Source of the DNA: Spirochaetia bacterium
GTDB lineage: Bacteria; Spirochaetota; Spirochaetia; SZUA-6; Bin103
Assembly (NCBI GenBank): GCA_965203055.1
Contig: OZ241863.1
Span: 416,001 to 480,000, forward strand
DNA length: 64,000 bases
Direction: 5' to 3'
Positions 2,770 to 64,000 of the stretch are shown one piece after another. The notes beneath the pieces were generated by a model. That model saw only the letters and a list, made by a program, of their open reading frames with translations. It made no database searches and had not been told where the DNA came from. The translations under genes and the position numbers were made by a program. How positions within the stretch are numbered: the stretch's first letter is position 1; every line of letters starts with the position of its first letter.

Positions 2770-3969
2770 TTAGCGCCGGTGCCCGGCGAGGGTGGCGGCG
2801 AGCTGGCGCAGGCTGGCGGCGCTGTGGGCGGCGGCGAACACGTCGACGAACGGGAGCGCGGCCTGCATGCCGCGGGTCTGCGGCTGATAGCCGGGGTTGC
2901 CGAGCAGCGGGTTGAGCCAGATCACCAGCGCCGCGCGGCGCTGGATCTCCGCCATGCCGGCGCCGAGCAGCTCGACGTCGCCGGTGTCCCAGCCGTCGCT
3001 GAGGATCGCCACCACCGTGCGCCGGTCCAGGACGGTGCGCCCATACTGCTCCAGATACTGCTGCAGCGAGACGCCGATGCGGGTGCCGCCGGCCCACTCC
3101 GGCACCTCGGCGGCGAGCCGGTCGAGGGCCAGCGTCAGGTTGCGCCCGCGCAGCTGCTCGGTGACGCGGTGCAGGTTGGTACTGAACACGAAGGTCTCGA
3201 GGCGCCGGTAGGCGCGCTGAAAGGCGAACATGAACTGGATCAGGAAGCGGCTGTAGAGGTCCATCGACTTGCTGACGTCGCAGATCAGGGCCAGCTTGAG
3301 GCGGCGCCGGCGGCGCCTCAGCAGGGCCAGCTCCAGCAGCTCCCCGGAGCGCAGCCCGGCGCGCAGCGTGCGCCGCAGATCGAGGCGCGAGCCGCCGGCG
3401 GCCGGCGCGTAGCGGCGCGACAGGGAGCGCGCGAGCTGCCGTCCGATCAGCATCAGCAGTTCCGAGATCCGTTCCAGCTCGCCGGTACTGAGCTGCGCGA
3501 AGTCGGTATGCGCCGCTACCTGCTGCGGGCTGTACGCCGGCGCGGAGATTTCGCGGTCGGAGTCGGACGCGAGGTGGGCCGCGAACTGCGGGCTTTGGCG
3601 GGCGCGCTGCGGCAGCCGGGCGGGCGGCAACACCCGCTCGGCGGGACCCGGCTCGCCGCCGGCGAGCGCGGCCTGATCTTCCCAGTAGCTGGCGTAGCAG
3701 GCGTCGAACAGCTCCTGCTCGGCGCGCGTCTTGGCGGTGGCGGCGCGCAGCGCGAGGCGGAATCGCTGCGCGTCATGCAACGCCAGCGCCGCGGCGCGCA
3801 ACGCGTCGGCCTGCTCGCCGGGGCCGAGGCCGACCCCCGCGCCGCGCAGCAGCCGGCAAAAGCGAACGATGCGCGCCGACAGGGTGGGGCGGGCGCGCGC
3901 CGCACTGCCCGGAGCGGTGCTGCCCGGAGCGGCGCCGCCCGGAGCGATGCTGCCGGGAGCGGCGTTCAC
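2770..3969 (-). CDS. VWA domain protein, CoxE-like
   Basis: MIDAS DVSKSM, WAGGTRIG, ILSDGWD, WLNPL. GTG start overlaps the upstream MoxR stop (GTGA). Confidence 0.88.
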   Translation of the reverse strand: MNAAPGSIAPGGAAPGSTAPGSAARARPTLSARIVRFCRLLRGAGVGLGPGEQADALRAAALALHDAQRFRLALRAATAKTRAEQELFDACYASYWEDQAALAGGEPGPAERVLPPARLPQRARQSPQFAAHLASDSDREISAPAYSPQQVAAHTDFAQLSTGELERISELLMLIGRQLARSLSRRYAPAAGGSRLDLRRTLRAGLRSGELLELALLRRRRRRLKLALICDVSKSMDLYSRFLIQFMFAFQRAYRRLETFVFSTNLHRVTEQLRGRNLTLALDRLAAEVPEWAGGTRIGVSLQQYLEQYGRTVLDRRTVVAILSDGWDTGDVELLGAGMAEIQRRAALVIWLNPLLGNPGYQPQTRGMQAALPFVDVFAAAHSAASLRQLAATLAGHRR

Positions 3970-4847
3970 CCCGCCGCCGCGGCCAGCATCTGCCGGGTCC
4001 GCCGGCGCACGTGATCCACGTCGTCGCGGCTCTTGAACACGACGCCGAGGGTGGCGGCCACCACCTCCTCGTCCAGGCAGCCGCGATGCAGGGCCACCAG
4101 CGTTGCGGCCCAGTCCAGGGTCTCCGCCACCCCCGGCGCCTTCTGCAGCGGCTCGCTGCGCGCCGCCGCCACGAAGCGGCAGATCTGCTCGGCGAGCGCG
4201 GCGTCGATGCCGGGCACCCGCCGCCGCACGATGGCCAACTCCTTGGCGTAATCCGGATAGTCGATCCACAGGTAGAGGCAGCGGCGCCGCACCGCGTCGG
4301 ACAGCTCGCGGGTACGATTGCTGGTCACCACCACGTAGGGCACGTGGCTGGCGCTCACGGTGCCGAGCTCGGGAATCGAAATCTGCCAGTCAGACAGGAT
4401 TTCGAGCAGAAAGGCCTCGAACTCCTCGTCCGCCCGGTCCAGTTCGTCCACCAGCAGCACCGGACTGCGCGTGCGGGTTATCGCCTGCAGCAACGGCCGC
4501 TTCAGCAGGTAGCGCTCGTCGAACAGCTCCCGCTCCCGTTCCTCCAGCGGCGCGCCTTCCCGCTCGCTCAGGCGGATGTGCAGCAACTGGCGCTTGTAGT
4601 CCCATTCGTAGAGGGCGGTGCCGGCGTCCAGCCCTTCGTAGCACTGCAGCCGGATCAGATCGGTGGCCAACGCGCGGGCCAGCACCTTCGCGATCTCGGT
4701 CTTGCCCACGCCGGCGGGTCCCTCCACCAGCAGCGGCTTGCGCAGTTGCTCGGCGATGAGCAGGGAGGTGACGATGGTCTCGTCGCCGACGTAGTTCTGT
4801 TCCTCCAGCAGCGCCGCGATGCGGGCGGCTTCCTTTGCGGTGTCCAT
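3966..4847 (-). CDS. MoxR/CoxD-family AAA+ ATPase
   Basis: EGPAGVGKT Walker A, RLQCYEG, LLVDELDRAD Walker B, RRRC. Paired with a VWA gene. Confidence 0.92.
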   Translation of the reverse strand: MDTAKEAARIAALLEEQNYVGDETIVTSLLIAEQLRKPLLVEGPAGVGKTEIAKVLARALATDLIRLQCYEGLDAGTALYEWDYKRQLLHIRLSEREGAPLEERERELFDERYLLKRPLLQAITRTRSPVLLVDELDRADEEFEAFLLEILSDWQISIPELGTVSASHVPYVVVTSNRTRELSDAVRRRCLYLWIDYPDYAKELAIVRRRVPGIDAALAEQICRFVAAARSEPLQKAPGVAETLDWAATLVALHRGCLDEEVVAATLGVVFKSRDDVDHVRRRTRQMLAAAAG

Positions 4848-19596: not shown

Positions 19597-20650
19597 GGCC
19601 CGGGGACTGAGCGACTTGCTTCAGGTAGACGAACTTCGCCTCCGAGTGCTCGCTCAGGACACTGGAGAAGTGATGCGACCCGGTGTCCGGATCCTTGACC
19701 ACGAAGTACCGGAAGTCGGTTTCCGCCGGCTGCAGCGCGGCCTGCAGGGCGACGAGCCCCGGATTGGCGATCGGGGCCGGCGGCAGTCCCCGGCGCCGGT
19801 AGGTGTTGAACTCCGATTGGATATCCAGATCCGCCTCGTAGATGCGCTTCGGGTGGGCGGCTCCCTGCAGCTCGGTAATGATGTAGACGATGGTGGCGCA
19901 CGATTCCAGGCGCGCGTTGCTCCGCAGCCGGTTGACGAACACCGACGCAATGATCGGCGCTTCGCTCGCTACCCGATACTCGCGCTCGATGATGGAGGCC
20001 AGGATCACCGTATCGTGCAGCGCGGGCGCCGCGGGCGCTGCGCCCGCGGGCTGAATCTGGGCCAGGCGGTCGAAGAAGGTATCGATCATGCGCCGCGCGG
20101 CCGCTTCGGCGCCGTATCCGCGCGGGAAGTGGTAGGTATCGGGAAACAGATAGCCTTCGGCGCTGCCGGCCTCGACTCCGTAGCTGCGCATCAACTCCGG
20201 GGAGTTCACCGCGGCGCGGAATTCGGCGGCGGCGGTAATGCCGTGCTGCTCCAGATGGGCGGCGATCCTGGTGCTGGTCCAGCCCTCGGGAATCGTGACC
20301 CGCAGCGTGTCGTGCGCGCCGCCGTCTACCAGCAGCTCGAGGATCTCGCCGGCGGTGGCCCCCGCCGGCAGGCGAAAGTAGCCCGCCTGGATCGCCGTTT
20401 CAGCGCCGCGCGCCTTGGCCAGCGCCCGCAGCAGCAGCGGCGAGCGAATGAACCCCGCGCGGTGCAGGCGGTGCGCTACGCCGGTCAGGGACTCGCCGGA
20501 CTGCACGGTGAACAACTGCGCCGCGGGCGGGCTGCCCGGCGCCTGATTCAGGTACCAGACGGCGGCCGCCGCGGCGCCCGCCAACAGCAGGGCGAGCGCC
20601 GCTAGGCGCCGCGACTGGTAAGAATGAACTCGACTCGTCGATTCTTCCAT
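19583..20650 (-). CDS. mltG: Endolytic transglycosylase MltG
   Basis: TIPEG, EGYLFPDTY, LASIIERE, NTY...GLPPAPIANPG. Confidence 0.93.
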   Translation of the reverse strand: MEESTSRVHSYQSRRLAALALLLAGAAAAAVWYLNQAPGSPPAAQLFTVQSGESLTGVAHRLHRAGFIRSPLLLRALAKARGAETAIQAGYFRLPAGATAGEILELLVDGGAHDTLRVTIPEGWTSTRIAAHLEQHGITAAAEFRAAVNSPELMRSYGVEAGSAEGYLFPDTYHFPRGYGAEAAARRMIDTFFDRLAQIQPAGAAPAAPALHDTVILASIIEREYRVASEAPIIASVFVNRLRSNARLESCATIVYIITELQGAAHPKRIYEADLDIQSEFNTYRRRGLPPAPIANPGLVALQAALQPAETDFRYFVVKDPDTGSHHFSSVLSEHSEAKFVYLKQVAQSPGRAHS

Positions 20651-23600
20651 CGGTTCTGCTGATCCTCGAACGGCACCACCGGGTGCGCGCCGCCGACTCC
20701 TTCCGTGGTTATCCGGTCCGCGCTCACGCCCAAGGCCACCAACTCCCGCTTCACGGCCTCGGCGCGCACCGCGGACAGCGGCAGCAACACGTCCTGCTGC
20801 TCCTGCGCCGCCGCCGCCGCGTCCCCATAGAATACGCTGTTGGCGTGCCCCTCGATCAGGATGGTGTGGCCGAGGTTGGCGTTGAAGATCTCCCCCAGAC
20901 GCAAGATGGTGCGCGCGTTGCGTTCCGCCGCCTCGCCGCTCACCAGCGAAAGATCCGCGGAGTCGGGAGGAAAGGTAATGGCAGCGACGCGAATTCTCAA
21001 CTTGTCGCCGTCGCGGATCAGCAACACGTCCACCGGAATCAAGGCGTTGACGATCGCCGCGTTCCCCACCACGTCGCCTACCGCCAGAGCTACCGGGTAC
21101 TCCATCGCCGACTGCACCAGCTCCCCGCGGTCCGACAACCCGTTCCAGGTGATGCTGCCGGCGGGCGCGCCGCGGCCCGAGAAGGTGGTGAACGGGGCCC
21201 CCAGCGGATCGGCGATGGTCATGCTCCAGCCGGCGATCGGGCTGAGGTCGTCGATCGCGATCTCCAGGGTAAGCTCGTCGTTCACGCCGTCGGCGTCCGG
21301 CGAGAACGGTTGCGGCGCCAGCGCCAGCCGGACGCGCGGCGGGGTGCGGTCCAGGAAGAACGACGCCGAGCGCGCGCGCGGCCGGTTGCCCTTCAGGTAG
21401 TCGGCGGACACCTCGGCGACGTAGGCGCCCTCCGGCGCCGGCAGGCCGCGGTCGGTCAACCCGTCCCACACCACTCGTTCCGGCGCCGCTCCGGCGCCGC
21501 CCATGGCGCGCTGCGCCCCCTGCTCGGCATGGATGAGCCGCACCTCCCAGCTACGCATCCCGTTCAACTCCGCGGTGAGGCCGATGGCCTGGGTGTCGCG
21601 CACGTCGTCGCCGTTGGGGGAGAACGCTTCCGCTGCCAGCGTCGCGAACAGCGGCGTCGGCCGGCCGTCGACCTCGATGCCTTCCAGCACCGCGGTGGCG
21701 GCGTTGCCGGCCAAGTCGCGGCCGGTTACCCGGTAGGCGTAGGTTCCGTCCGGCACCACGTTGCCGTTCTCGTCATGGGCGTCCCAGGTGAAGTCGGCCA
21801 GTTCGCTGCGCCAGAAGAAGCTGCGTACCACGTTGCCGGCCCCGTCGATGATCTCCCCCTGCCACCGCTCCTCGCTGGTGGAGGATTGCCGTATCTGCAG
21901 CAGGTCGCGGCGGCCGTCACCGTCGGGCGACAGCAGCAGCAGGTCGGCGGTCAACTCCGCTTCCGGATATCCGGTATCGATCGTGAACGGCGGGCTGCTG
22001 GCGCTGGGGTTGTTGCCCTTGACGTAGGACACCTCCAGCGACCCGAAGTAGTCGCCGTCGGCGACCCGATCGCCGGCGTCGTCGATGCCGTCCCAGATGA
22101 TCTGCTCGGGCACGCCGCCGCGGCCCGAAAGAGTACGCACCACCGGCGCCGCGGCCGGGTCGCCGCGCCCGGCATGGATGCGCAGGGTATAGCGTTCGAT
22201 CCCCTCGCTGTCGTCCAACCTCGGCAGCAGCATCACGTGGTCGGCGACGCCGTCGGAGTTGGGCGAGAAGTGGGTGGCGCTGGTGGTCATGAATACCGCG
22301 GTATCGCCGGTGTCGATACGCAGGTCGATGGCATTGGAGCGGCCTTCGTTGCCGGCGGCGTCGCGCGCCGCCAGGGTATAGCGGTAGGTGCCGTCGGCGG
22401 TCGGGCGGCCGTCGGCGCGGCGTCCGTCCCAGGTATAGCTGGCCGCGGGGCTGCCGCGCCAGGTCCTGGTATGGACCACGGTACCGTCCGCGTCGCGCAC
22501 GGTGGCGGTCCACACCGCCTCGTCGTAGCTCTCATGGACCACCGTCACCGTGTCCTTGATGCCATCTCCGTTCGGCGAAAATACCGTCAGGTCCGCCTTG
22601 ATGACCGCGGCCGGCGCCGTGAGATCGATGACCAGATCGGGCGGCGCGGCCTGCGGCCGATTGCCGCTGGCGTAGACCAGGTCCAGATGCGCGTGGTAGC
22701 GGCCCTCGGGCAGGACGCGGCCGACGGAGTCGCGGCCGTCGAAGACCAGTTCCTCCGGCACGAGCGCGCCGCCGCCGAAGCGGCGCACCACCTCGTCGGC
22801 GGCGTTGCGCACCACCAGTTCCCAGCGCTCGACGCCGGACCGCACCGGGACCTCCAACCGATAGCTGGTGCGGTCATTGCGGCCGTCGCCGTTGGGCGAG
22901 ATGTGTGCGTCGGTGATCCGCACCGCGACCGGTGTGGCCTGCGTACTGATCACGATGTTGCTGAGCCGCGCCGCCGCCGTGTTGCCGGCGCGGTCGGTAG
23001 CGAACAGACGGTAGCTGTAGACGCCGTCGGCGGCCGGGCTGCCGTCGGCGCGCCGGCCATCCCACGACACCGCGGCGGGCGCCGCGCCGTCCCACACGAA
23101 GTCCGCCACCGGCGCGCCGGACGCATCGAGCACCTGCGCCTGCCAGCGCTCTTCGGCGGAGACCTGTTGCTCGATGGTCAGGGTGTCATTGTGGCCGTCG
23201 CCGTTGGGCGAGAACGTCAGTACTTCGGCGCGCGCGGAAGCCTGCGGCGGAGTGTTGTCCACGATCACGGTACGGAGCCTGCTCCGGGCGTGGTTGCCGC
23301 GATCGTCCCACGCTTCCAGGTAGTACCGGTAGGTGCCGTCGGGGACGACGTTGCCGCCGGAGGAGCGGCCGTCCCAACGCAGGGAATCGGGCACCTCGAT
23401 CCCGGTGCGGACGGCAAACAACCGTTCGACCGCGTCCGGTACGCCGGGCGCTTCCGGCTGCCAGTCGCGGTTGCGGATCATGCGGACCACGTTGCCGTCC
23501 GCGTCTTCGATTACCAGTTCGAAGCCCGCCACCAGGCCGCTGTCGACGATGCTGATCGGCAGGATCAGATCATCCTGCACGCCGTCCAGGTTGGGGGAGC

Positions 23601-24684
23601 GGTAGGTTACCTCGGGGCTGTCGATGACGATCGCCGGCGGCTCCGGATCGACGCCGCCCAGGGCCACCCCGGCGCCCAACCCGACGCCCCACAGCTCTTT
23701 GTCCAACGGCGCCGCCGCCACCTGAACCCGCACCTCGCCGGGCGTAGCGGCGCGTTCTTCCGGCGCGGCCCCCAGCGCCGGCGCGTCGAAGCCGAAGCTG
23801 ACGTCGATCCCGAAGCCGGGGCCTCTGCCGGGGGCCCGGTCTCCTACCGCGCCCCCGAACACCGTAACCGGGTAATGGGCCATCAGCCGCAGCACGTCGC
23901 CGATCGCCAGTTCCGCGCCCAGCTCCAGCTTCAGCGCCTGGAGGGTGGGCGCCCAAATGTCGAACTTGGCCCCTACCGACACCTCCTCGTTCGCCAGCGG
24001 GTAGACCGCTACCCCCGCGGCCAGGGTGAACGGCGGCGCGTAGACCTCATACTCGTCCGATTCTTCGCCGACCCCCAGGCCGATCCCGCGGAAGGCAAAC
24101 CCCCAGCTCAGATCCTGCAGCGGCCCGACGGCGCCCACCTGGTGCAGCAATCCAAGGTCGAGCCCGAGGCCGAAGGCGAATCCTTCGCTGCGGTGTTCGC
24201 TGCCCATCAGCAGGCCGGCGCCGGCCCCCACCGAGAAACCGCGGTACAGCTCTCTGGCGAACGACGCGTGCAGGGCGCCCATCGGCCCAAAGGACCACTT
24301 GGGCAACTTCGAGCCGAAGTAGTGGGCGCTGAATCCCCAGGTCCCGGCCGGGGTGGGGACGCTGGCGCCGGCGCTTACCGCGTGGCCGAGCTTTTGGCCC
24401 TGCGTCACCGGAACCAGAGCGGTGTAGCCCAGATCGAAGTTCAAGCGTTGATCGACGGCGGTGACGGCCGGATTGAGGACGTGGGCGGTGGACACGCCGG
24501 TCGTGGTGACGTGGCGCCCGCCGGCCAGCAGAGCGGGCGCGTACAGGGAAAGCAGGTCGCCGCTGTGGGGCACGCCGCCGGCCAGCCCAGCCACCAGCGG
24601 CAGCGCGGCGCCAAGCAGCAGGCGCAGGCGCCCGGCAACGTGGATTCTTCGCGGCGGCGAATGGCGGCGACTTCGGGTGCTCAT
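20602..24684 (-). CDS. Large envelope protein: putative N-terminal beta-barrel, 8 FlgD-Ig-like repeats, C-terminal OmpA-like domain
   Basis: Signal-like N-terminus, amphipathic strands, eight SP(N/D)xDG-type ... WDG ... GxY repeats, and IEGHAN...LSxxRA...NRRVEF at the end. Confidence 0.85.
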   Translation of the reverse strand: MSTRSRRHSPPRRIHVAGRLRLLLGAALPLVAGLAGGVPHSGDLLSLYAPALLAGGRHVTTTGVSTAHVLNPAVTAVDQRLNFDLGYTALVPVTQGQKLGHAVSAGASVPTPAGTWGFSAHYFGSKLPKWSFGPMGALHASFARELYRGFSVGAGAGLLMGSEHRSEGFAFGLGLDLGLLHQVGAVGPLQDLSWGFAFRGIGLGVGEESDEYEVYAPPFTLAAGVAVYPLANEEVSVGAKFDIWAPTLQALKLELGAELAIGDVLRLMAHYPVTVFGGAVGDRAPGRGPGFGIDVSFGFDAPALGAAPEERAATPGEVRVQVAAAPLDKELWGVGLGAGVALGGVDPEPPAIVIDSPEVTYRSPNLDGVQDDLILPISIVDSGLVAGFELVIEDADGNVVRMIRNRDWQPEAPGVPDAVERLFAVRTGIEVPDSLRWDGRSSGGNVVPDGTYRYYLEAWDDRGNHARSRLRTVIVDNTPPQASARAEVLTFSPNGDGHNDTLTIEQQVSAEERWQAQVLDASGAPVADFVWDGAAPAAVSWDGRRADGSPAADGVYSYRLFATDRAGNTAAARLSNIVISTQATPVAVRITDAHISPNGDGRNDRTSYRLEVPVRSGVERWELVVRNAADEVVRRFGGGALVPEELVFDGRDSVGRVLPEGRYHAHLDLVYASGNRPQAAPPDLVIDLTAPAAVIKADLTVFSPNGDGIKDTVTVVHESYDEAVWTATVRDADGTVVHTRTWRGSPAASYTWDGRRADGRPTADGTYRYTLAARDAAGNEGRSNAIDLRIDTGDTAVFMTTSATHFSPNSDGVADHVMLLPRLDDSEGIERYTLRIHAGRGDPAAAPVVRTLSGRGGVPEQIIWDGIDDAGDRVADGDYFGSLEVSYVKGNNPSASSPPFTIDTGYPEAELTADLLLLSPDGDGRRDLLQIRQSSTSEERWQGEIIDGAGNVVRSFFWRSELADFTWDAHDENGNVVPDGTYAYRVTGRDLAGNAATAVLEGIEVDGRPTPLFATLAAEAFSPNGDDVRDTQAIGLTAELNGMRSWEVRLIHAEQGAQRAMGGAGAAPERVVWDGLTDRGLPAPEGAYVAEVSADYLKGNRPRARSASFFLDRTPPRVRLALAPQPFSPDADGVNDELTLEIAIDDLSPIAGWSMTIADPLGAPFTTFSGRGAPAGSITWNGLSDRGELVQSAMEYPVALAVGDVVGNAAIVNALIPVDVLLIRDGDKLRIRVAAITFPPDSADLSLVSGEAAERNARTILRLGEIFNANLGHTILIEGHANSVFYGDAAAAAQEQQDVLLPLSAVRAEAVKRELVALGVSADRITTEGVGGAHPVVPFEDQQNRWKNRRVEFILTSRGA

Positions 24685-24784
24685 CGCGTCTCTGACCAGG
24701 GCGTGCCCTACGCGCCGCGTACGCCGCAGCCGGCCTACGCGGCGCGTCCCCGGCGGGCGCCGCCGGCCGCCGGCCGCCGGCGCT

Positions 24785-25270
24785 TCACCCGTCCGCCGCG
24801 CCGGGCTGCGAATCACTCGGCGGCGCGCGGTCGACGGCGAGCAGCGGCTCCTCCGCCCGCCGCGCCAGCCAGTAGTCGATCTCGAGCGCACTGCGCAGCG
24901 GCCCCACACCGATGCCCGGACAATCTCGTGCGGCCGCGTCCCAGTTCTCCTGATCGACCAGTTGCGAGGCCCAGAACGGGAAGCTGCGGCACTGCAGCGG
25001 CCGCCCCGGATACACCGCGCACCCGCCCTCTCCCCAGAACACGCAATCGTAATCGGCGCGTTCCCGCAGGCTCAGGCGCGTGGCGCCGCCCCACTGCACC
25101 TCGCGACAGTGGCGCGCCCGCACCTCTTCCGGGGTCAGCCCCAGGAAGGCGGCGAGTTGCTCCAGGTCGTTGCGCGACAGAAACACGTAGCCAGGCTGAT
25201 GCCGGCAGCAACGCTGGCAGCGCGTACAGTCGAAGCGCAACCCGCCGGCGTAGAACCGGCCCTCATCCAT
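24785..25270 (-). CDS. YkgJ-family cysteine cluster (Fe-S/Zn) protein
   Basis: FDCTRCQRCC, CVFW, CAVYxGRPLQCRSFPFW, CPG. Confidence 0.9.
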   Translation of the reverse strand: MDEGRFYAGGLRFDCTRCQRCCRHQPGYVFLSRNDLEQLAAFLGLTPEEVRARHCREVQWGGATRLSLRERADYDCVFWGEGGCAVYPGRPLQCRSFPFWASQLVDQENWDAAARDCPGIGVGPLRSALEIDYWLARRAEEPLLAVDRAPPSDSQPGAADG

Positions 25271-57035: not shown

Positions 57036-57760
57036 AATCTGCAGCAGGTGTTGGGGAGCCGTAGCGGCGCCCGCTGGTGCGGTCCACGTAGCGGCCGCGG
57101 TCGCGCCGCCGCACCTCGCGCTTGACCGCCGCCGGGATAGCGCGGCCGGTCACGCCTGTCTTCGGCGCCGAAGTGGCGTCGGTCGCCGGCTTCGCTGCCG
57201 AAGTGACCGGGCGGTCAGCGGCTTCGTCTCCCGGCTGCGCCGGCGCCTGAGCCGATACCTTCGCCGCCGAAGGAGCGGCGCTGTCCGCGCCGGCCTCCTG
57301 CTTCGCTGCCGAGGCAGCGCCGCGAGCCGAGGCTGCCTGCGTCTTCGCCGCCGAAGTTTGCTCGGCGCCTTTGGCCGGCGCGGCGCGCCGCCCGGGCCGG
57401 ATCGTGGCGGTCGAGCCCTTCCCGCACCAGCCGCCCCATGAACTGCCCCAACGTCAGGTGCGGGTCAACGTGGGACAGGAGGCCCTTGAGCCGCTCCAAG
57501 CCCCGCCGGTACTCATCGTCGATCACCGCCTTGAGTTCCCAGCGCCCGCCGCCCAGCGGCCGCACCCGATCCGCCGGCGCCGCCAGCTCCGGGTCCACCT
57601 CGGCCAGCACTGCATCACCTGCCGGCTGCTCTTGCCGGACGCCTGCTCCACCAAGTCCCGCCGCGCCTCCGAGTTCAGCACCGGCGCCGGCACCGGCTTC
57701 CGCTCCGCCGGCTTCCGCTCTGCCGAACGCGGCGGCGCCGAGCCCTCCTGCGACTGAGCG
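57036..57760 (-). pseudogene. Fragmented HNH-endonuclease-type gene
   Basis: RAIPAAVKREVxRRD.GR, then a frameshifted QHLLQI that breaks off before the HNH Asp-His. Upstream pieces (ELKAVID..GLERLKGLLSH) lie in other frames. Confidence 0.7.
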
Positions 57761-57899
57761 GCAGCCCCGCACCCGGCCCCGCGCGGCGCGCTACGCGCCG
57801 CGCGTTCCTTCTTGCGCTCCTGCCGGTCGAACGCATGCTGCAACTGCGCGGCCGCTTTCAGCGTCATCGTGCCATTCTGCAGTATAATCATGGAAACTA

Positions 57900-58155: not shown

Positions 58156-58371
58156 ATGTCACAACACGTCGTTTCACGAGATGGCAAGTGGGCGGTGCGC
58201 AGGGGCGGTGCCGATCGCGTTACGCGACGTTTCGACACGCAACGTGAAGCCATCGACGCTGCACGTGAGCTTGCCCGTAAGCAGAAAACCATATTGTACA
58301 TCCATGGAGAGGATGGCAGAATTATAAAGCGAGACTCTTATGGGGAGGACCCATTTCCACCGAAAGGGTAA
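58156..58371 (+). CDS. DUF2188 family protein
   Basis: HVV..DGKWAV...FDTQREAI..AR...IHGEDGRI..RDSYG.DP.PPKG; GGAGG upstream. Confidence 0.88.
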   Translation: MSQHVVSRDGKWAVRRGGADRVTRRFDTQREAIDAARELARKQKTILYIHGEDGRIIKRDSYGEDPFPPKG

Positions 58372-58383
58372 TCACAGCGCCGG

Positions 58384-58918
58384 TTGACCCCAACTTTGAT
58401 CGAAACGTATTCCTGAACGAAGTGATGCTGGCGAATCACGGGTGGAGAAGATCATTCAACTTATTGAGTCATCCCGTTACTCGATTCACGACCTGAGCAG
58501 ATGCCAAGCCCGCGCGGCGCGGGAACACTACCGGCTCAACATGCCCTTTGAGCTTGGATTGGACTTCGGATGCCGACGTTATGGGGGCGAACCTCTTTCG
58601 GGGAAGGTCATTCTGATACTCGAGGAAAAGCCCTATCGCTATCAGGCGGCAATTTCCGACTTGGCAGGAAATGATATTGAAGCGCATGGCGGCGATCCGG
58701 AAACTGCCGTAAGGAAGGTCAGAAACTGGATTGACGGGCTCGGTGACTTCGAACTTATCGGACCTCATCGCATATTTTCAGAATATGAGGACTTCTATGA
58801 GTGGTACTACGAACGCCAACTGGAGGCCGGCTTTTCCGAACGTGACATCCAAGACTATTCCACCCCGAAACTCTTGAAGGAAATGCGCCATTGGACCGAA
58901 AAAGATAGGCCGCGATAA
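58384..58918 (+). pseudogene. Disrupted TIR/nucleoside-deoxyribosyltransferase-like protein
   Basis: The N-terminal PNFDRNVFLN is out of frame with ERSDAGESRVEKI...SIHDLSR...NMPFELG. Low GC. Confidence 0.6.
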
Positions 58919-58990
58919 GCATTCAGCGCCGCCGGAAGGAGTTCCCCGCTACCCAGGCTGGACGAAAGCTCCCGGTAAGCATCCGGCGGC

Positions 58991-60954
58991 CTAATCGGCC
59001 AGCTCCACCAGAAGCTGTTTGCCGGCCAGCGTCTGGCGCGCCCAATAGAGGTTCTGGTACTGATCGTAGCCGCCCTCTGCCAGCTTGGCCGTGCCGGTCG
59101 CGGTGGTGCCGCTGGCCGGCGCCGAAAAGGTCACGGTTGGGGCAGATTGGTAGCCGCTTCCCCCGTTCGTGACCGTCACCGACGCTACGCGCAGGGCCGC
59201 GGTGCCGGCGGCCGTGGTGCCGCCGCCCGGCGCCGCGCCGAAGGTCACGGTCGGGGCGGAGGTGTAGCCGCTCCCCCGGTTCGTGATCGTCACCGACGCT
59301 ATGCCGTAGCGCAGCACCGCGGTGCCGGCGGCGGTGGTGCCGCCGCTCGGCGCTGCGCCGAAGGTCACGGTGGGGGCGGAGGTGTAGCCGCTCCCCCCGT
59401 TCGTGATCGTCACCGACGCTACGCCGTAGCGCAGCACCGCGGTGCCGGCGGCGGTGGTGCCGGCGCCCGGCGCTGCGCCGAAGGTCACGGTCGGGACAGA
59501 GGTGTAGCCGCTTCCGGGGTTCGTGATCGTTACCTCCGCTACGCCGCTTTGCAGCACCGCGGTGCCGGTTGCCGTGTACGCGCTGCCCGTCGGCGAGGCC
59601 GAAAACGTCACGGAAGGGGCAGCCGTGTAGCCGCTCCCCGGGTTCGTGATCGTCACTGCCTCTATTCTGCTGGTTCTCAGCGTCGCGGTGCCGGCCGCAC
59701 CGCTGCCCCCTCCGCCCGAAAACGTCACGGATGGGGCGGTAGTGTAGCCGCTCCCCCGGTTCGTGATGCTTATGGTTAGCACTTGACCGCCGTGTATCGT
59801 CGCTGTTCCCGTTGCCCGGGTGCCACCGGACGGCGGAGCGCCAAACGTCACGGTTGGGGCCGACGTGTAACCGGTCCCAAAATTCGTCATCGTCACGCCG
59901 TCTAATTCGGTTCGCCGCGTTGCGGCGCCGGTCGCCGTGGTGCCGCCGGGCGGCGGCGCGCTGAACGTCACGGTCGGGTCAGAGGTATAGAATAGCCCCC
60001 GGAACGTGAGAGTCACTGCCGCTACGCCGCTTTGCCGCACCGCGGTGCCGGTGGCCGTGGTGCCGCCGGCCGGCGCCGCTCCGAACGTGACGCTGGGAAC
60101 CGACGTGTAGCCGCTCCCGGCGGTCCCGACCGTCACCGAATCGACGTACCTGGACCCAACGACGGTGCCGGTTGCCGTGGCGCCGCCGGCCGTCGGCGCT
60201 CCGAACGTGACGCTGGGAACCGACGTGTAGCCGCTTCCTGCAGTTCCCACCGTCACCGAATCGACGGTACCGGAGCCCACCACCGCGGCGCCGGTTGCCG
60301 TGGCGCCGCCGGCCGGCGGCGCCCCGAACGTCACGCTGGGAACCGTCGCGTAGCCGCTCCCTGCGGTCCCGACCGTCACGGAATCGACGGAGCCGACTGC
60401 GGCGCCGGTTGCCGTAGTGCCGCCGGCCGGCGGCGCCTCGAACGTGACGCTGGGAACCGACGCATAGCCGCTCCCCGGGTTCGCTATCGTGACCGATTCA
60501 ACCGTGTCGGAGGCGCCCGACTGATCCGGGGCGGTGAGCACCAGCGCCACCGCGCCCGCCCGGACGTCCGCGGTAACCGTCCACTCCGCGCCGGAGATGT
60601 CGGACGCGAAGACCGGCTTGGCGCTCGTGCTGGTGAACGGCAGCTCGTGCCCGCCAATCGAAACGCGCGCGCTGCCGCCGGTGAGCCGCTCCCAGGCATA
60701 CGGCGCGGAACGGCTGGACACGGCGCCCGTCAGGTTCGGTTCATCATCGCCAAAGTCAGCCGCGTTGATCGTCCAGCGCTTCTCCGCCGGCGCTGCCGGC
60801 TGCGGGGTTGGCGCGGGCTCGGTCGGCGGTTTACCCCCCCCCCTGAAGCCGGGTCGGCGGGCGCGGCGGCCGGGCGCGCCGCCTGGGAACAGGCCATCAG
60901 CGCGGCGATGCCGGCGGCCAGCAACAGCAATAACGGCGGCGATACCTTACTCAC
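58991..60954 (-). CDS. Repeat-rich surface lipoprotein copy 1, split by a frameshift at a G10 tract
   Basis: GGAGG plus GTG 60954, signal peptide LLLLLAAGIAALMAC, G10 at 60834-60843, then the -1 frame is open to the stop at 58991. Twelve GSGY..P.VTF repeats. Confidence 0.85.
60834..60843 (-). repeat. G10 homopolymer (slippage site), copy 1
   Basis: C10 on the + strand. G11 or G8 would fuse the two ORFs. Confidence 0.9.
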
Positions 60955-60992
60955 GATTCCTCCGGTGGCGTGTCCGCCCGTCGATCCGTCGA

Positions 60993-61325
60993 TCATGGTA
61001 GCACGGCTACGCTATGGGCGGTTTCGTGCGAATCTGCGGACGATTGAGACTCGGATGCGGGCATCCCCAACTCGTTCTCGATGCGCGCCAGGCGATCAGC
61101 CACGGCAACACGTAGATCGTCTACCTTCTCATCAAGCGCGTCGATACTACCCTCAATCTTGGCTATGTCGGCGCGGGCCTCGGCGATGGTCACGCTGGTT
61201 GCCTTCACGTCGCCGGATAGGTCGCCGATCTTACCGCTCAATACCCAGGCGGCACCGACGATAGCGATAACGACGGTCACCACCACACCGACGGCGGTAA
61301 CTATCAGGGTCTTGTTCTCACTCAC
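60993..61325 (-). CDS. Small TM plus coiled-coil hypothetical protein
   Basis: AGGAGG upstream of GTG; hydrophobic N-terminal helix followed by heptads. Confidence 0.7.
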   Translation of the reverse strand: MSENKTLIVTAVGVVVTVVIAIVGAAWVLSGKIGDLSGDVKATSVTIAEARADIAKIEGSIDALDEKVDDLRVAVADRLARIENELGMPASESQSSADSHETAHSVAVLP

Positions 61326-61401
61326 GGTCCACCTCCTGCCAGAACGGCAACAGGCAAGGCGGCCAACCTGCGGCCGCGTGATTCATGGCGCCAGCATACC
61401 A

Positions 61402-61476
61402 CGGCGCCAGATCCGCGGCAAGAAGATCGATATCAACGACAGCCTGTGGCTGGCTCGCATCTGCCAATTTGGTCTT
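61402..61476 (+). mobile_element. IS110-family transposase fragment
   Basis: Reads RRQIRGKKIDINDSLWLARICQFGL, resembling the IS110 GRKTDxxDAxWLA motif. Confidence 0.6.
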
Positions 61477-61509
61477 TCACAGCAAAGCTCCGGGTCGCTA
61501 GCCGGCGGC

Positions 61510-63470
61510 CTAATCGGTTAGCTCCACCAGAAGCTGCTTGCCGGCCAGCGTCTGGCGCGCCCAATAGAGGTTCTGGTATTGATCGTAGCCGCCCGAGGCC
61601 AAGTTCGCCGTGCCGGTCGCGGTGGTGCCGCTGGCCGGCGCCGAAAAGGTCACGGTCGGGGCAGATTGGTAGCCGCTTCCCCCGTTCGTGACCGTCACCG
61701 ACGCTACGCGCAGGGCCGCGGTGCCGGCGGCCGTGGTGCCGGCGCCCGGCGCCGCTCCGAAGGTCACGGTGGGGGCGGAGGTGTAGCCGCTCCCCCCGTT
61801 CGTGATCGTCACCGACGCTACGCCGTAGCGCAGCACCGCAGTGCCGGCGGCGGTGGTGCCGCCGCTCGGCGCTGCGCCGAAGGTCACGGTTGGGACAGAG
61901 GTGTAGCCGCTCCCCCCGTTCGTGATCGTCACCGACGCTACGCCGTAGCGCAGCACCGCGGTGCCGGCGGCGGTGGTGCCGGCGCCCGGCGCTGCGCCGA
62001 AGGTCACGGTTGGGACAGAGGTGTAGCCGCTCCCAGGGTTCGTGATCGTTACCTCCGCTACGCCGCTTTGCAGCACCGCGGTGCCGGTTGCCGTCTGGGA
62101 GTTGAGGCCCGATGCTGCGCCGAAGGTCACGGTCGGGGCAGAGGTGTAGCCGCTTCCGGGGTTCGTGATCGTCACTTCCAGTATTCTTCTGGCCCATACA
62201 TACGCGGTGGCGACGGCGCCGCTGCCCCCTCCTCCCGAAAACGTAACGGTCGGGCGGGAGGTGTAGCCGCTCCCCCGGTTCGTTATGGTTACGCTGAGCA
62301 CACCACCGCCCTGTATCGTCGCGGTTCCGGTTGCCTGCGTGCCACCGGCCTGCTGCGGAGCGCCAAAGGTCACGGTTGGGGCGGACGTGTAACCGCTCCC
62401 CGCGTTCGTAACGAGCACGGTAAATAGTTCGGGCCGGCGCGTTGCGGTGCCGGTCGCGGTGGTGCCGCCGGACGGCGGAGCGCTGAACGTCACGGTCGGG
62501 TCACCATTTGGATAGTTCCCGTTGATCACCATCGTCACTGACGTTACGCCGCTTTGCAGCACCGCGGTGCCGGTTGCCGTGGTGCCGCCGGACGGCGGCG
62601 CTCCAAACGTGACGCTGGGAACCGACGTGTAGCCGCTCCCGGCGGTCCCGACCGTCACCGAATCGACGTACCTGGGCCCAACGACGGTGCCGGTTGCCGT
62701 GGCGCCGCCGGCCGGCGCCGCTCCGAACGTCACGGTGGGAACCGACGCATAGCCGCTTCCTGCAGTTCCCACCGTCACCGAATCGACGGTACCGGAGCCC
62801 ACCGCGGCGCCGGTTGCCGTAGTGCCGCCGGCCGTCGGCGTCCCGAACGTCACGGTGGGAACCGACGCGTAGCCGTTCCCGGCGGTCCCGACCGTCACGG
62901 AATCGACGGAGCCCGCCGCGGCGCCGGTTGCCGTGGTGCCGCCGGCCGTCGGCGCCCCGAACGTGACGCTGGGAACCGACGCATAGCCGCTTCCCGGGTT
63001 CGCTATCGTGACCGACTCGACCGTGTCGGAGGCGCCCGACTGATCCGGGGCGGTGAGCACCAGCGCCACCGCGCCCGCCCGCACCTCGGCGGCAACCGTC
63101 CACTCCGCGCCGGAGAGATCGGACGCGAAGACCGGCTTGGCGCTCGTGCTGGTGAACGGCAGCTCGTGCCCGCCAATCGAAACGCGCACGGCGCCGCCGG
63201 TGAGCCGCTCCCACGCATACGGCGCGGAACGGCTGGACACGGCGCCCGTCAGGTTCGGTTCATCATCGCCAAAGTCAGCCGCGTTGATCGTCCAGCGCTT
63301 CTCCGCCGGCGCTGCCGGCTGCGGAGTTGGCGCGGGCTCGGTCGGCGGTTTACCCCCCCCCCTTGGGCCGGGTCGGCGGGCGCAACGGCCGGGCGCGCCG
63401 CCTGGGAACAGGCCATCAGCGCGGCGATGCCGGCGGCCAGCAACAGCAATAACGGCGATACCTTACTCAC
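61510..63470 (-). CDS. Repeat-rich surface lipoprotein copy 2, split by a frameshift at a G10 tract
   Basis: GGAGG plus GTG 63470, same lipobox, G10 at 63353-63362, -1 frame open to the stop at 61510. Twelve repeats. Confidence 0.85.
63353..63362 (-). repeat. G10 homopolymer (slippage site), copy 2
   Basis: C10 on the + strand with the same frame offset as copy 1. Confidence 0.9.
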
Positions 63471-63699
63471 GTTCCCTCCGGTGGCGTGTCCGCCCGTCGG
63501 TCATGGTAGCACGCGCCCCCCAAGCTGACCACCCGTCCCCGCGCGGGCGTGGGCGGGCGCGCCGCTCCGGTGGTCGCCTGCGGGTCGATCGGCTATCATG
63601 CGAGGCGAGATGAGCGAGTTCCCGGAGCGGATGGCCGGTCAGCGCGATCCCGGCGTCCCTGCGCAGACCCCGCGCGAGCGCTGCCGGCCCTGACCGGCC

Positions 63700-64000
63700 A
63701 TGCAGCCGCGCACGCGCTTCATCCTCAACGACCGCGAGGTTGAGACCGCGGCCCCGGCCGGGCTGCTGCTGCTCGACTACCTGCGCGCCGGCGCGCGCCT
63801 GACCGGCACCAAGGAGGGCTGCAAGGAGGGCGACTGCGGCGCCTGCGCGGTCCTGATCGGGGAGCTTCAGGGCGGCGCCGTCCGCTACCAGCCGGTCACC
63901 TCCTGTCTGGTGCCGCTGGCCGAGGCGCACGGCGCGCACGTGGTGACCATCGAAGGGTGCAATCCGGCGGTCGGGCTCGACCCCGTGCAGCGCGCGGTGG
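63700..64000 (+). CDS. xdhA: Xanthine dehydrogenase small subunit (2Fe-2S), runs off the window
   Basis: LLDYLR...LTGTKEGCKEGDCGACAV...SCL...VVTIEG. Confidence 0.88.
   Translation, partial: MQPRTRFILNDREVETAAPAGLLLLDYLRAGARLTGTKEGCKEGDCGACAVLIGELQGGAVRYQPVTSCLVPLAEAHGAHVVTIEGCNPAVGLDPVQRAV

Follow-up and report, generated by a model that had tools for sequence, protein, structure and literature searches.

Poly-G tracts between lipoprotein signal and protein body point to slipped-strand phase variation of twin repeat-protein genes in an uncultured Spirochaetia lineage

The window, as the analysed DNA is called here, is a stretch of 64,000 nucleotides (68.8% GC) from a Spirochaetia bacterium (assembly GCA_965203055.1, contig OZ241863.1, positions 416,001 to 480,000), and it carries two paralogous minus-strand genes, copy A (60954-58991, from GTG to stop) and copy B (63470-61510), in which a lipoprotein-type signal and a long protein body are parted by a run of ten G's (Table 1). 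The N-terminus of both copies reads VSKVSP(P)LLLLLAAGIAALMA-C (…AAGIAALMA-C); by pattern matching it has a positive n-region, a hydrophobic core and a lipobox ending in Cys (codons 60889-60891 in copy A and 63408-63410 in copy B), after which an Ala/Pro linker begins. As assembled, the open reading frames (ORFs) of the two signals read VSKVSP(P)LLLLLAAGIAALMAC SQAARP...GGG and then run into an Arg-rich tail: 37 codons in copy A and 36 in copy B lie ahead of the G run, and past it the signal frame of both copies consists of GGG and 34 Arg-rich codons before a stop is reached. The frame one base back stays open across the tract (GGGKPPTEPAPTPQPAAPAEKRW...) for 613 further codons, and the long frame, when read back through the tract, gives GGGKPPTEPAPTPQPAAPAEKRWTINAADFGDDEPNLTGAVSSRS. 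These codons encode a Pro-rich linker, a conserved N-terminal domain of ~100 residues (N-domain), twelve repeats of ~40 residues with the core GSGYTSxPTVTF, and the conserved C-terminal motif (Q/N)xxxNLYWARQTLxGKxLLV. With G10 the 613-codon body is one base off the signal frame in both copies, and on translation both genes are in frame only at n = 2 mod 3 (8, 11, 14...), where the junction would read ...ADPA(S/Q)GGGGKPPTEPAPTPQPAAPAEK. The G11 products would have 654 aa (37+4+613) in copy A and 653 aa (36+4+613) in copy B, while the G8 products would be one Gly shorter. The ORFs of 576 aa on the minus strand (58991-60721 and 61510-63240) lack a signal peptide; they begin at an internal GTG, and their N-terminus is MSSRSAPYAW. 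The linkers of the copies differ only by ACC vs ACT (60806 vs 63325), which is silent in the body frame and changes Pro to Leu in the signal frame, and the two codons 5′ of the tract are GCT TCA in copy A and GCC CAA in copy B, yet G10 is present in both. An earlier sequence-only reading of this DNA had described the 576-aa ORFs without signal peptide, the short upstream ORFs with GGAGG and a lipoprotein signal that pass through G10 into an Arg-rich tail, their joining by one extra G into proteins of about 654 and 653 aa, the linker substitution that is silent in the shifted frame and Pro>Leu in the unshifted one, and the differing codons 5′ of a retained G10; each of these points stands, the joined lengths by frame count.

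The tracts are more than chance, as GGG is a minority Gly codon and homopolymers are otherwise strongly depleted. In ten housekeeping genes of the window only 21% of the Gly codons are GGG, and in the two family genes 18% are; the need to encode Gly therefore does not account for an all-GGG run. The homopolymers of the window comprise nine C6, two G6, none of 7-9 bases and two C10, so that the two C10 runs are its sole homopolymers of at least 7 bases, in agreement with the earlier remark that no comparable homopolymer occurs elsewhere in the window. In a Pfam scan of the 36 other ORFs of the window, the inspected housekeeping genes match their profiles over full or near-full length, including an M32 peptidase (2-489 of 489), MreB (2-324 of 327), RpoD, DnaG, Ffh, TrmD, RNase III and SMC, and therefore assembly errors are not general in the window. 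Frame breaks were found at the two tracts only.

A species-representative genome collection was scanned once with the N-domain alignment, which returned 36 loci, all from four assemblies named 'MAG: Spirochaetia bacterium' (metagenome-assembled genome, MAG; OZ241907.1, OZ251573.1, OZ251575.1 and CATQHW01). A poly-G run lies at the exact linker site of the window genes in 7 of the 36 loci, all of them in OZ241907.1, a close relative (Table 1). One of these, L001, is syntenic with copy B, the two being 91% identical over 2505 nt that reach the window end, with flanks past the 3′ end of the gene that match the window at 93% (474 nt) and 98.6% (649 nt). The orthologous tract is G18 in L001 vs G10 in copy B in the same context, with a handful of substitutions in the 150 nt before and the 70 nt after it. 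The sister paralogs L012 (G20) and L013 (GGG only) share their flanks. The sequence-only reading had pointed to related MAGs as the place to look for paralogs and their tract lengths, and they hold G12-G22 at the same site, an ortholog with G18 and tract-less sisters. For tracts of the CAA/TCA/TCT[Gn]TAAxCC type the in-frame class is n = 2 mod 3, while it is n = 1 mod 3 for L003 and n = 0 mod 3 for L012 and L004, and L011 is the only in-frame gene among the seven tract-bearing relatives (1/7). An intragenic tract is absent from the other 29 loci; a signal peptide can be recognised in 27 of them, and 24 of these 27 are in frame. With the window genes included, the frame is broken in 8/9 genes with a tract vs 3/27 without one (Fisher p = 4e-5), and ribosome-binding site (RBS), start codon and lipobox are intact in 8/8 of the broken tract-bearing genes.

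Three features of a contingency locus come together at this site: a homopolymer of hypermutable length within an ORF (G10 in the linker codons of both genes), a repeat number that switches the reading frame on translation, and a repeat number that differs among close relatives at the same position, the exact lengths from long reads being uncertain. We consider it likely that these genes belong to a slipped-strand, phase-variable lipoprotein family. In this mechanism, the poly-G in the linker codons just past the lipobox Cys would gate expression in this subclade. Slipped-strand mispairing at replication would add or remove G's, which would place the signal and the 613-codon body either in frame (ON, here G8, G11 and G14) or out of frame (OFF, with production of a short lipopeptide only). 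Changes in length would be frequent and reversible within a population and the proteins would be exposed at the cell surface. Each paralog would switch on its own, so that many combinations of expressed coat proteins would occur per population. The sequence-only reading had proposed independently switchable surface proteins that are both OFF in the consensus; the slipped-strand contingency locus is supported by the tract lengths of the relatives, while the call of both copies as OFF is uncertain, as the consensus length may err by one.

Predicted proteins in public sets vary at the same site. Among 95 family proteins examined, pattern matching finds the signal peptide in frame in 76, with the lipobox and h-region pattern conserved, and not in the other 19, two of which are a truncated signal (P0003) and a fragment (P0136). 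Single clusters at 90% identity contain the same-site variants QGGGGEPP, QGGGGKPP, QGGGVKPP, QGGGGASEP, KGEGGTP, KGGEGTP, PKGGPP and QGTPSEP. Some cluster members have their start right at the tract or shortly ahead of it (MGGGGKPP, MGGGKPP, MTAAPAKGGGG), and others start at an internal GTG (MSNRS...), like the window ORFs. The tract lengths behind the database proteins (P0004, P0012 and others) are taken from Gly counts only. These variants bear on a reading in which the tracts are real, the genes are stably in frame (G11 in the window) and the breaks are long-read homopolymer miscalls. Such an assembly artefact would fit several observations: the frame states look random, both window copies are just one G short, and the related records are single-contig MAG chromosomes, which suggests long reads. 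For Nanopore R10.4, most homopolymers are described as resolved at consensus only below 11 bases, with runs of at least 10 bases 'probably still problematic' (PMC9262707). Miscalls do not, however, yield variants by whole Gly codons, interrupted tracts (GEGG, GGEG) or the absence of a tract between near-identical flanks; because the protein variants include whole-codon differences, interrupted tracts and tract loss, they are not base-calling errors of +/-1. The 8-base difference at the syntenic locus is also too large for a miscall. Runs of G18-G22 are not expected to be genetically stable, given slipped-strand mispairing. Moreover, a miscall in the window alters only the ON/OFF call and not the nature of the locus. 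We regard an artefact as an unlikely sole explanation.

The gene bodies were compared by the ratio of nonsynonymous to synonymous substitution rates (dN/dS). Over 610-612 codons, dN/dS is 0.54 for A vs B, 0.53 for B vs L001 and 0.42 for A vs L001, and for the first 125 codons the respective values are 0.26, 0.17 and 0.32. With dS at 0.15-0.18 in these pairwise comparisons, no further stop or shift was found. These values indicate that the gene bodies are under purifying selection and that the genes are not decaying. They stand against the notion that the twins are defunct members of a large family in which the tract is a mutational scar, to which one could be led by the broken frames of both window copies, of 3/27 tract-less paralogs and by the 19/95 database proteins without a signal peptide. 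Decaying pseudogenes would not be expected to keep 610-612 codons free of any other stop or frameshift at this dS with dN/dS well below 1, to retain an intact RBS, start codon and lipobox in each of the eight tract-bearing genes with a broken frame, and to break always at the tract. Decay is thus very improbable.

Selection on the bodies would also suit programmed recoding, in which the DNA is fixed out of frame and the full-length protein arises when RNA polymerase slips on the G run or ribosomes shift by -1 on G GGG GGG. Ribosomes are prone to slip on runs of at least 7 G's, as is RNA polymerase on long runs. That 8/9 tract-bearing copies are out of frame agrees with this idea, which the sequence-only reading had offered as programmed transcriptional or -1 ribosomal slippage. 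A programmed event should require the same shift in each gene, whereas winA, winB (copies A and B), L003 and L012 need +1 G and L001, L002, L010 and L004 need -1 or +2. The frame is simply intact in one paralog that bears a tract and in many relatives that bear none, and no unusual RNA structure flanks the tract, with z = -0.10, -1.11, +0.45 and +0.82 over 90 nt on each side (200 shuffles each). Because the shifts of the eight broken genes differ (4 vs 4), in-frame relatives exist and flanking RNA structure was not found, programmed recoding is disfavoured and quite unlikely to be the principal route. Slippage of polymerase or ribosome may add some leaky expression to the switching at the DNA level.

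Slipped-strand phase variation, as preferred here, may extend to a second type of homopolymer switch in the same family, for upstream poly-C runs occur at other members. Runs of at least 9 bases number 23 in the 36 loci (298 kb) and two in the window, giving 25 in about 362 kb, and 24/25 sit at the 5′ ends of family genes (Table 1). The 5′ regions of the family make up ~4% of the sequence (a rough denominator) and yet hold these 24 long runs. The lone run away from family genes is a C10 (L024, 1922-1931) at the 3′ end of a minus-strand ORF that resembles an ATP-binding cassette (ABC) permease. In the OZ251573/OZ251575 paralogs the poly-C lies directly 5′ of GGAG-N8-ATG, and there is no intragenic tract, while L011 combines a C17 upstream with its intragenic G20. 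At L005 (OZ241907.1, 1380-1500 and 6395-6560), a small ORF located ~170 nt upstream of the signal peptide precedes two of three tandem family genes. It has the RBS GAGGAGGA and reads MH(L/V)TDTLAGNRDVFPLPAL..., followed by poly-C (C15; C7-T-C31) and the conserved tail LIDEY(D/A)NLT. Poly-Pro would be the translation of this tract, and the tail is in frame or not depending on the tract length.

Table 1. Positions of the features of the twin genes in the window, and homopolymers of related loci (locus coordinates)
Feature	Position	Strand	Description
GGAGG RBS, copy A	60959..60963	-	sequence reading; precedes GTG 60954
GGAGG RBS, copy B	63475..63479	-	sequence reading; 4 nt ahead of GTG 63470
Signal-peptide ORF as assembled, copy A	60730..60954	-	VSKVSPPLLLLLAAGIAALMA-C, linker, GGG, Arg-rich tail, stop at 60730
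Signal-peptide ORF as assembled, copy B	63249..63470	-	VSKVSPLLLLLAAGIAALMA-C, Pro/Ala linker, GGG, out-of-frame Arg-rich tail, stop at 63249
G10 tract, copy A	60834..60843	- (C10 on + strand)	context TCA[Gn]TAAACC
G10 tract, copy B	63353..63362	- (C10 on + strand)	context CAA[Gn]TAAACC
Body frame, copy A	58991..60841	-	architecture as in copy B
Body frame, copy B	61510..63360	-	Pro-rich linker, N-domain, 12 repeats, C-terminal motif QYQNLYWARQTLAGKQLLVELTD
110-aa ORF between the twins	60993..61325	-	one N-terminal membrane helix and a coiled coil
Contents of segment	56645-61509		copy A; 110-aa ORF; DUF2188 gene 58156-58371 (+); 158-aa ORF 58442-58918 (+); part of coiled-coil ORF
Linker poly-G of relatives	OZ241907.1		L001 G18, L002 G18, L003 G21, L004 G22, L010 G12, L011 G20, L012 G20
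Upstream poly-C	L022, L025-L032, around 3771-3801		C9-C17; OZ251573.1, OZ251575.1
Upstream C28	L033, 5210-5237		reads G28 on locus + strand; directly 5′ of RBS
The 24 runs at 5′ ends of family genes			nine linker tracts; twelve C9-C17 upstream; one C28; C15 and C31 in small upstream ORF

Several points weigh against phase variation as read here. The length differences come entirely from assembled sequences and predicted proteins, and given the limits of R10.4 consensus at runs of at least 10 bases, the window G10 could be a miscalled G11 and G18-G22 could be approximate, depending on the platform. The identical G10 in the two window copies could reflect a systematic call instead of two independent states, although both may truly be G10 (OFF) and not a miscalled in-frame length. 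One ON gene in nine is compatible with the 1-in-3 expectation for random lengths (P = 0.14), and because of this the frame states carry no information, so that we discarded ON/OFF states as evidence. Frame breaks are not tied to long tracts alone, because the linker is also out of frame in three of the 27 tract-less paralogs (L033, L034 and L035), which may be real pseudogenes or assembly errors. Where these frames break (L033 ~1780-1830, L034 ~3960-3985, L035 ~3960-4000), there are only C5/C6 runs, or none. Since the loci were picked for holding family genes, 24/25 is an enrichment in a biased sample. Finally, the proteins are putative lipoproteins by pattern match, and the M at position -2 is atypical of a classical lipobox. 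Spirochaetal lipoboxes are looser than classical ones. The linker can be read as a hypermutable switch site of variable length whatever the exact tract numbers.

The lipoprotein signal and the repeat architecture suggest a surface coat or adhesin-like protein. Neither twin protein matched any family of Pfam or NCBIfam at E up to 0.1, a sequence search of the PDB returned nothing meaningful (best E 0.57, a pilin), and the ESM Atlas gave scores of 0.80 or less only. AlphaFold2 models the 616-aa body as all-beta, with a single helix at the C-terminus (mean predicted local distance difference test score, pLDDT, 70.4; predicted template modelling score, pTM, 0.41), and Foldseek found no match to this model in the PDB at E <=0.001, the best being 1.7. 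A separate model of the N-domain was poorer (pLDDT 61.7). The N-domain profile finds 61 representative clusters at E <=0.001, 47 of them at 1e-10, and because these 61 are all that it finds among 1.84 billion representatives, the family is lineage-restricted; the repeat by itself matches thousands of 'beta strand repeat-containing' proteins. In one relative, L016 (2540-4000), the family N-domain follows a long region of short repeats of the GNAQV/GDAxV type in one open frame. A lipoprotein signal was not seen in this locus, which may represent a fusion or a different N-terminal module.

In the N-domain tree, winA, winB and L001 form one clade with a support of 97 in the Shimodaira-Hasegawa-like approximate likelihood ratio test (SH-aLRT). 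Tract-bearing genes are concentrated in one group of 13 members (8/13), where they are interleaved with tract-less paralogs, and the tree needs at least five changes of tract state; its starred branches force 2. The syntenic site holds one family gene in OZ241907.1 vs two in the window, and the window segment 56645-61509 has no counterpart there, apart from a paralogous match of copy A. Within this segment, window 57158-57862 is 91% identical to L010 2677-3373, upstream of another paralog, which suggests recombination between family loci. Identity between copies A and B is 91-97% in the first 900 nt and in the last 450 nt but drops to 77-85% in the 600 nt at the centre, a mosaic pattern that would fit recombination between paralogs. 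Of the immediate surroundings, the 110-aa ORF that lies between the twins gave weak sub-threshold matches alone in Pfam/NCBIfam and may be cotranscribed with copy A. A promoter and terminator scan of 58800-63700 gave 0 promoter-like signals and 2 terminator-like ones vs 2.7 expected. Plus-strand ORFs antisense to the repeat genes (59000-60500 and 61520-63020), such as 60032-61264 (410 aa) and 62554-63528 (324 aa), were rejected as genes, being Arg/Gly-rich by-products of the GC-rich repeats. Elsewhere in the window, 20605-25071 on the minus strand encodes a 1489-aa protein with FlgD Ig-like, Big_13, CHU_C (type IX secretion sorting) and C-terminal OmpA domains.

A broader picture can be drawn tentatively, and we hold it as possible rather than probable: a two-tier hypermutable coat system in a high-GC uncultured Spirochaetia lineage, with ~20 paralogous repeat lipoproteins per genome. 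The gate of each would be either a poly-G within the gene, which switches the frame, or a poly-C located at the RBS or in a small upstream ORF, which switches expression, with both present in L011, tracts of up to 22-31 nt and central gene parts that are mosaic as from gene conversion. This would amount to combinatorial antigenic variation of the Mycoplasma/Neisseria type outside known host-adapted pathogens, and the driving force may be phages or grazers instead of immunity.

Contingency loci built on homopolymers are textbook knowledge in a few host-adapted pathogens and commensals. Here, homopolymer switching appears to gate a whole orphan family of repeat lipoproteins in uncultured Spirochaetia of 66-73% GC, with unusually long tracts at two positions. 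If the switching is true, a new lineage, and possibly a new ecological setting, would join those in which surface variation is stochastic, and tract length would become a marker for population heterogeneity in MAGs. Annotators would also be warned that such 'split' genes are not to be labelled pseudogenes or silently corrected. The locus is useful, too, as a test case for homopolymer accuracy in long-read MAGs. Searches of an open-access library for this protein family and for environmental contingency loci found nothing on the family or the lineage. What is new lies in the family, the lineage, the lengths of the tracts and their two positions, while the mechanism itself is a classical one.

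Among spirochaetes, Treponema pallidum offers a comparison in tprE/G/J, tp0126 and tprL, where variable poly-G tracts (7-11) at genes for putative surface-protein paralogs control expression through their length (PMC7864442). These tracts are described as parts of promoters that affect transcription (PMC7864442), whereas the window tract lies in an ORF and would act on frame; the upstream poly-C of the OZ251573/OZ251575 paralogs resembles the promoter-tract type of T. pallidum. T. pallidum is a low-GC host-restricted pathogen, in contrast to the relatives of the window genes, which are MAGs of 66-73% GC. Membership in the Treponema Tpr/major sheath protein group found no backing in the Pfam and NCBIfam searches at E up to 0.1 or in the PDB sequence and fold searches, and because no family was matched, Tpr included, homology to Tpr is not claimed.

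The Vlp, Vsa and Vpma proteins of Mycoplasma are multigene families of repetitive surface lipoproteins with independent switching and with mosaic or repeat variation in the mature part. Their switches are promoter poly-A tracts or DNA inversions, and their hosts are wall-less host-associated bacteria. Site-specific recombination is described for variable lipoproteins of Mycoplasma (PMC2268961). The Mycoplasma families and the window family have no sequence relationship. In Neisseria, the tract of pilC is in the signal-peptide region. The accounts of pilC, hmbR and hpuA describe 5′ intragenic poly-G tracts in surface-protein genes that are turned ON or OFF by frameshift, with many such loci per genome, the 'phasome', in unrelated proteins of an unrelated organism and with tracts of typically 8-14 nt (PMC3786947, PMC5953494). 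Likewise, inlA of Listeria monocytogenes has a 5′ homopolymer in a surface-protein gene that is reversibly inactivated, although the tract is poly(A) of 7-8 bases in a single gene (PMC2831843). For inlA, a frameshift rate ~1000-fold over the point-mutation rate is reported, as is a general 5′ bias of homopolymeric tracts (PMC2831843).

The pilin genes of Bifidobacterium breve (bbr_0113a/b, bbr_1889a/b) are described with the Sec signal and the LPXTG body in two ORFs that are parted by a G-tract subject to slippage at replication (PMC9187656). The host is likewise of high GC, the poly-G is intragenic and separates the secretion signal of a surface protein from its body, and the halves are annotated as two ORFs, with replication slippage restoring the frame in B. 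breve (PMC9187656). The B. breve tracts measure 8-12 nt and recur across related species (PMC9187656), while the relatives of the window genes have longer ones, G18-G22. The systems differ in their products and number, with an LPXTG-anchored pilin at 1-2 loci per genome in B. breve vs lipoproteins with ~20 paralogs here, and whereas slippage was measured in B. breve (PMC9187656), it is inferred for the window genes.

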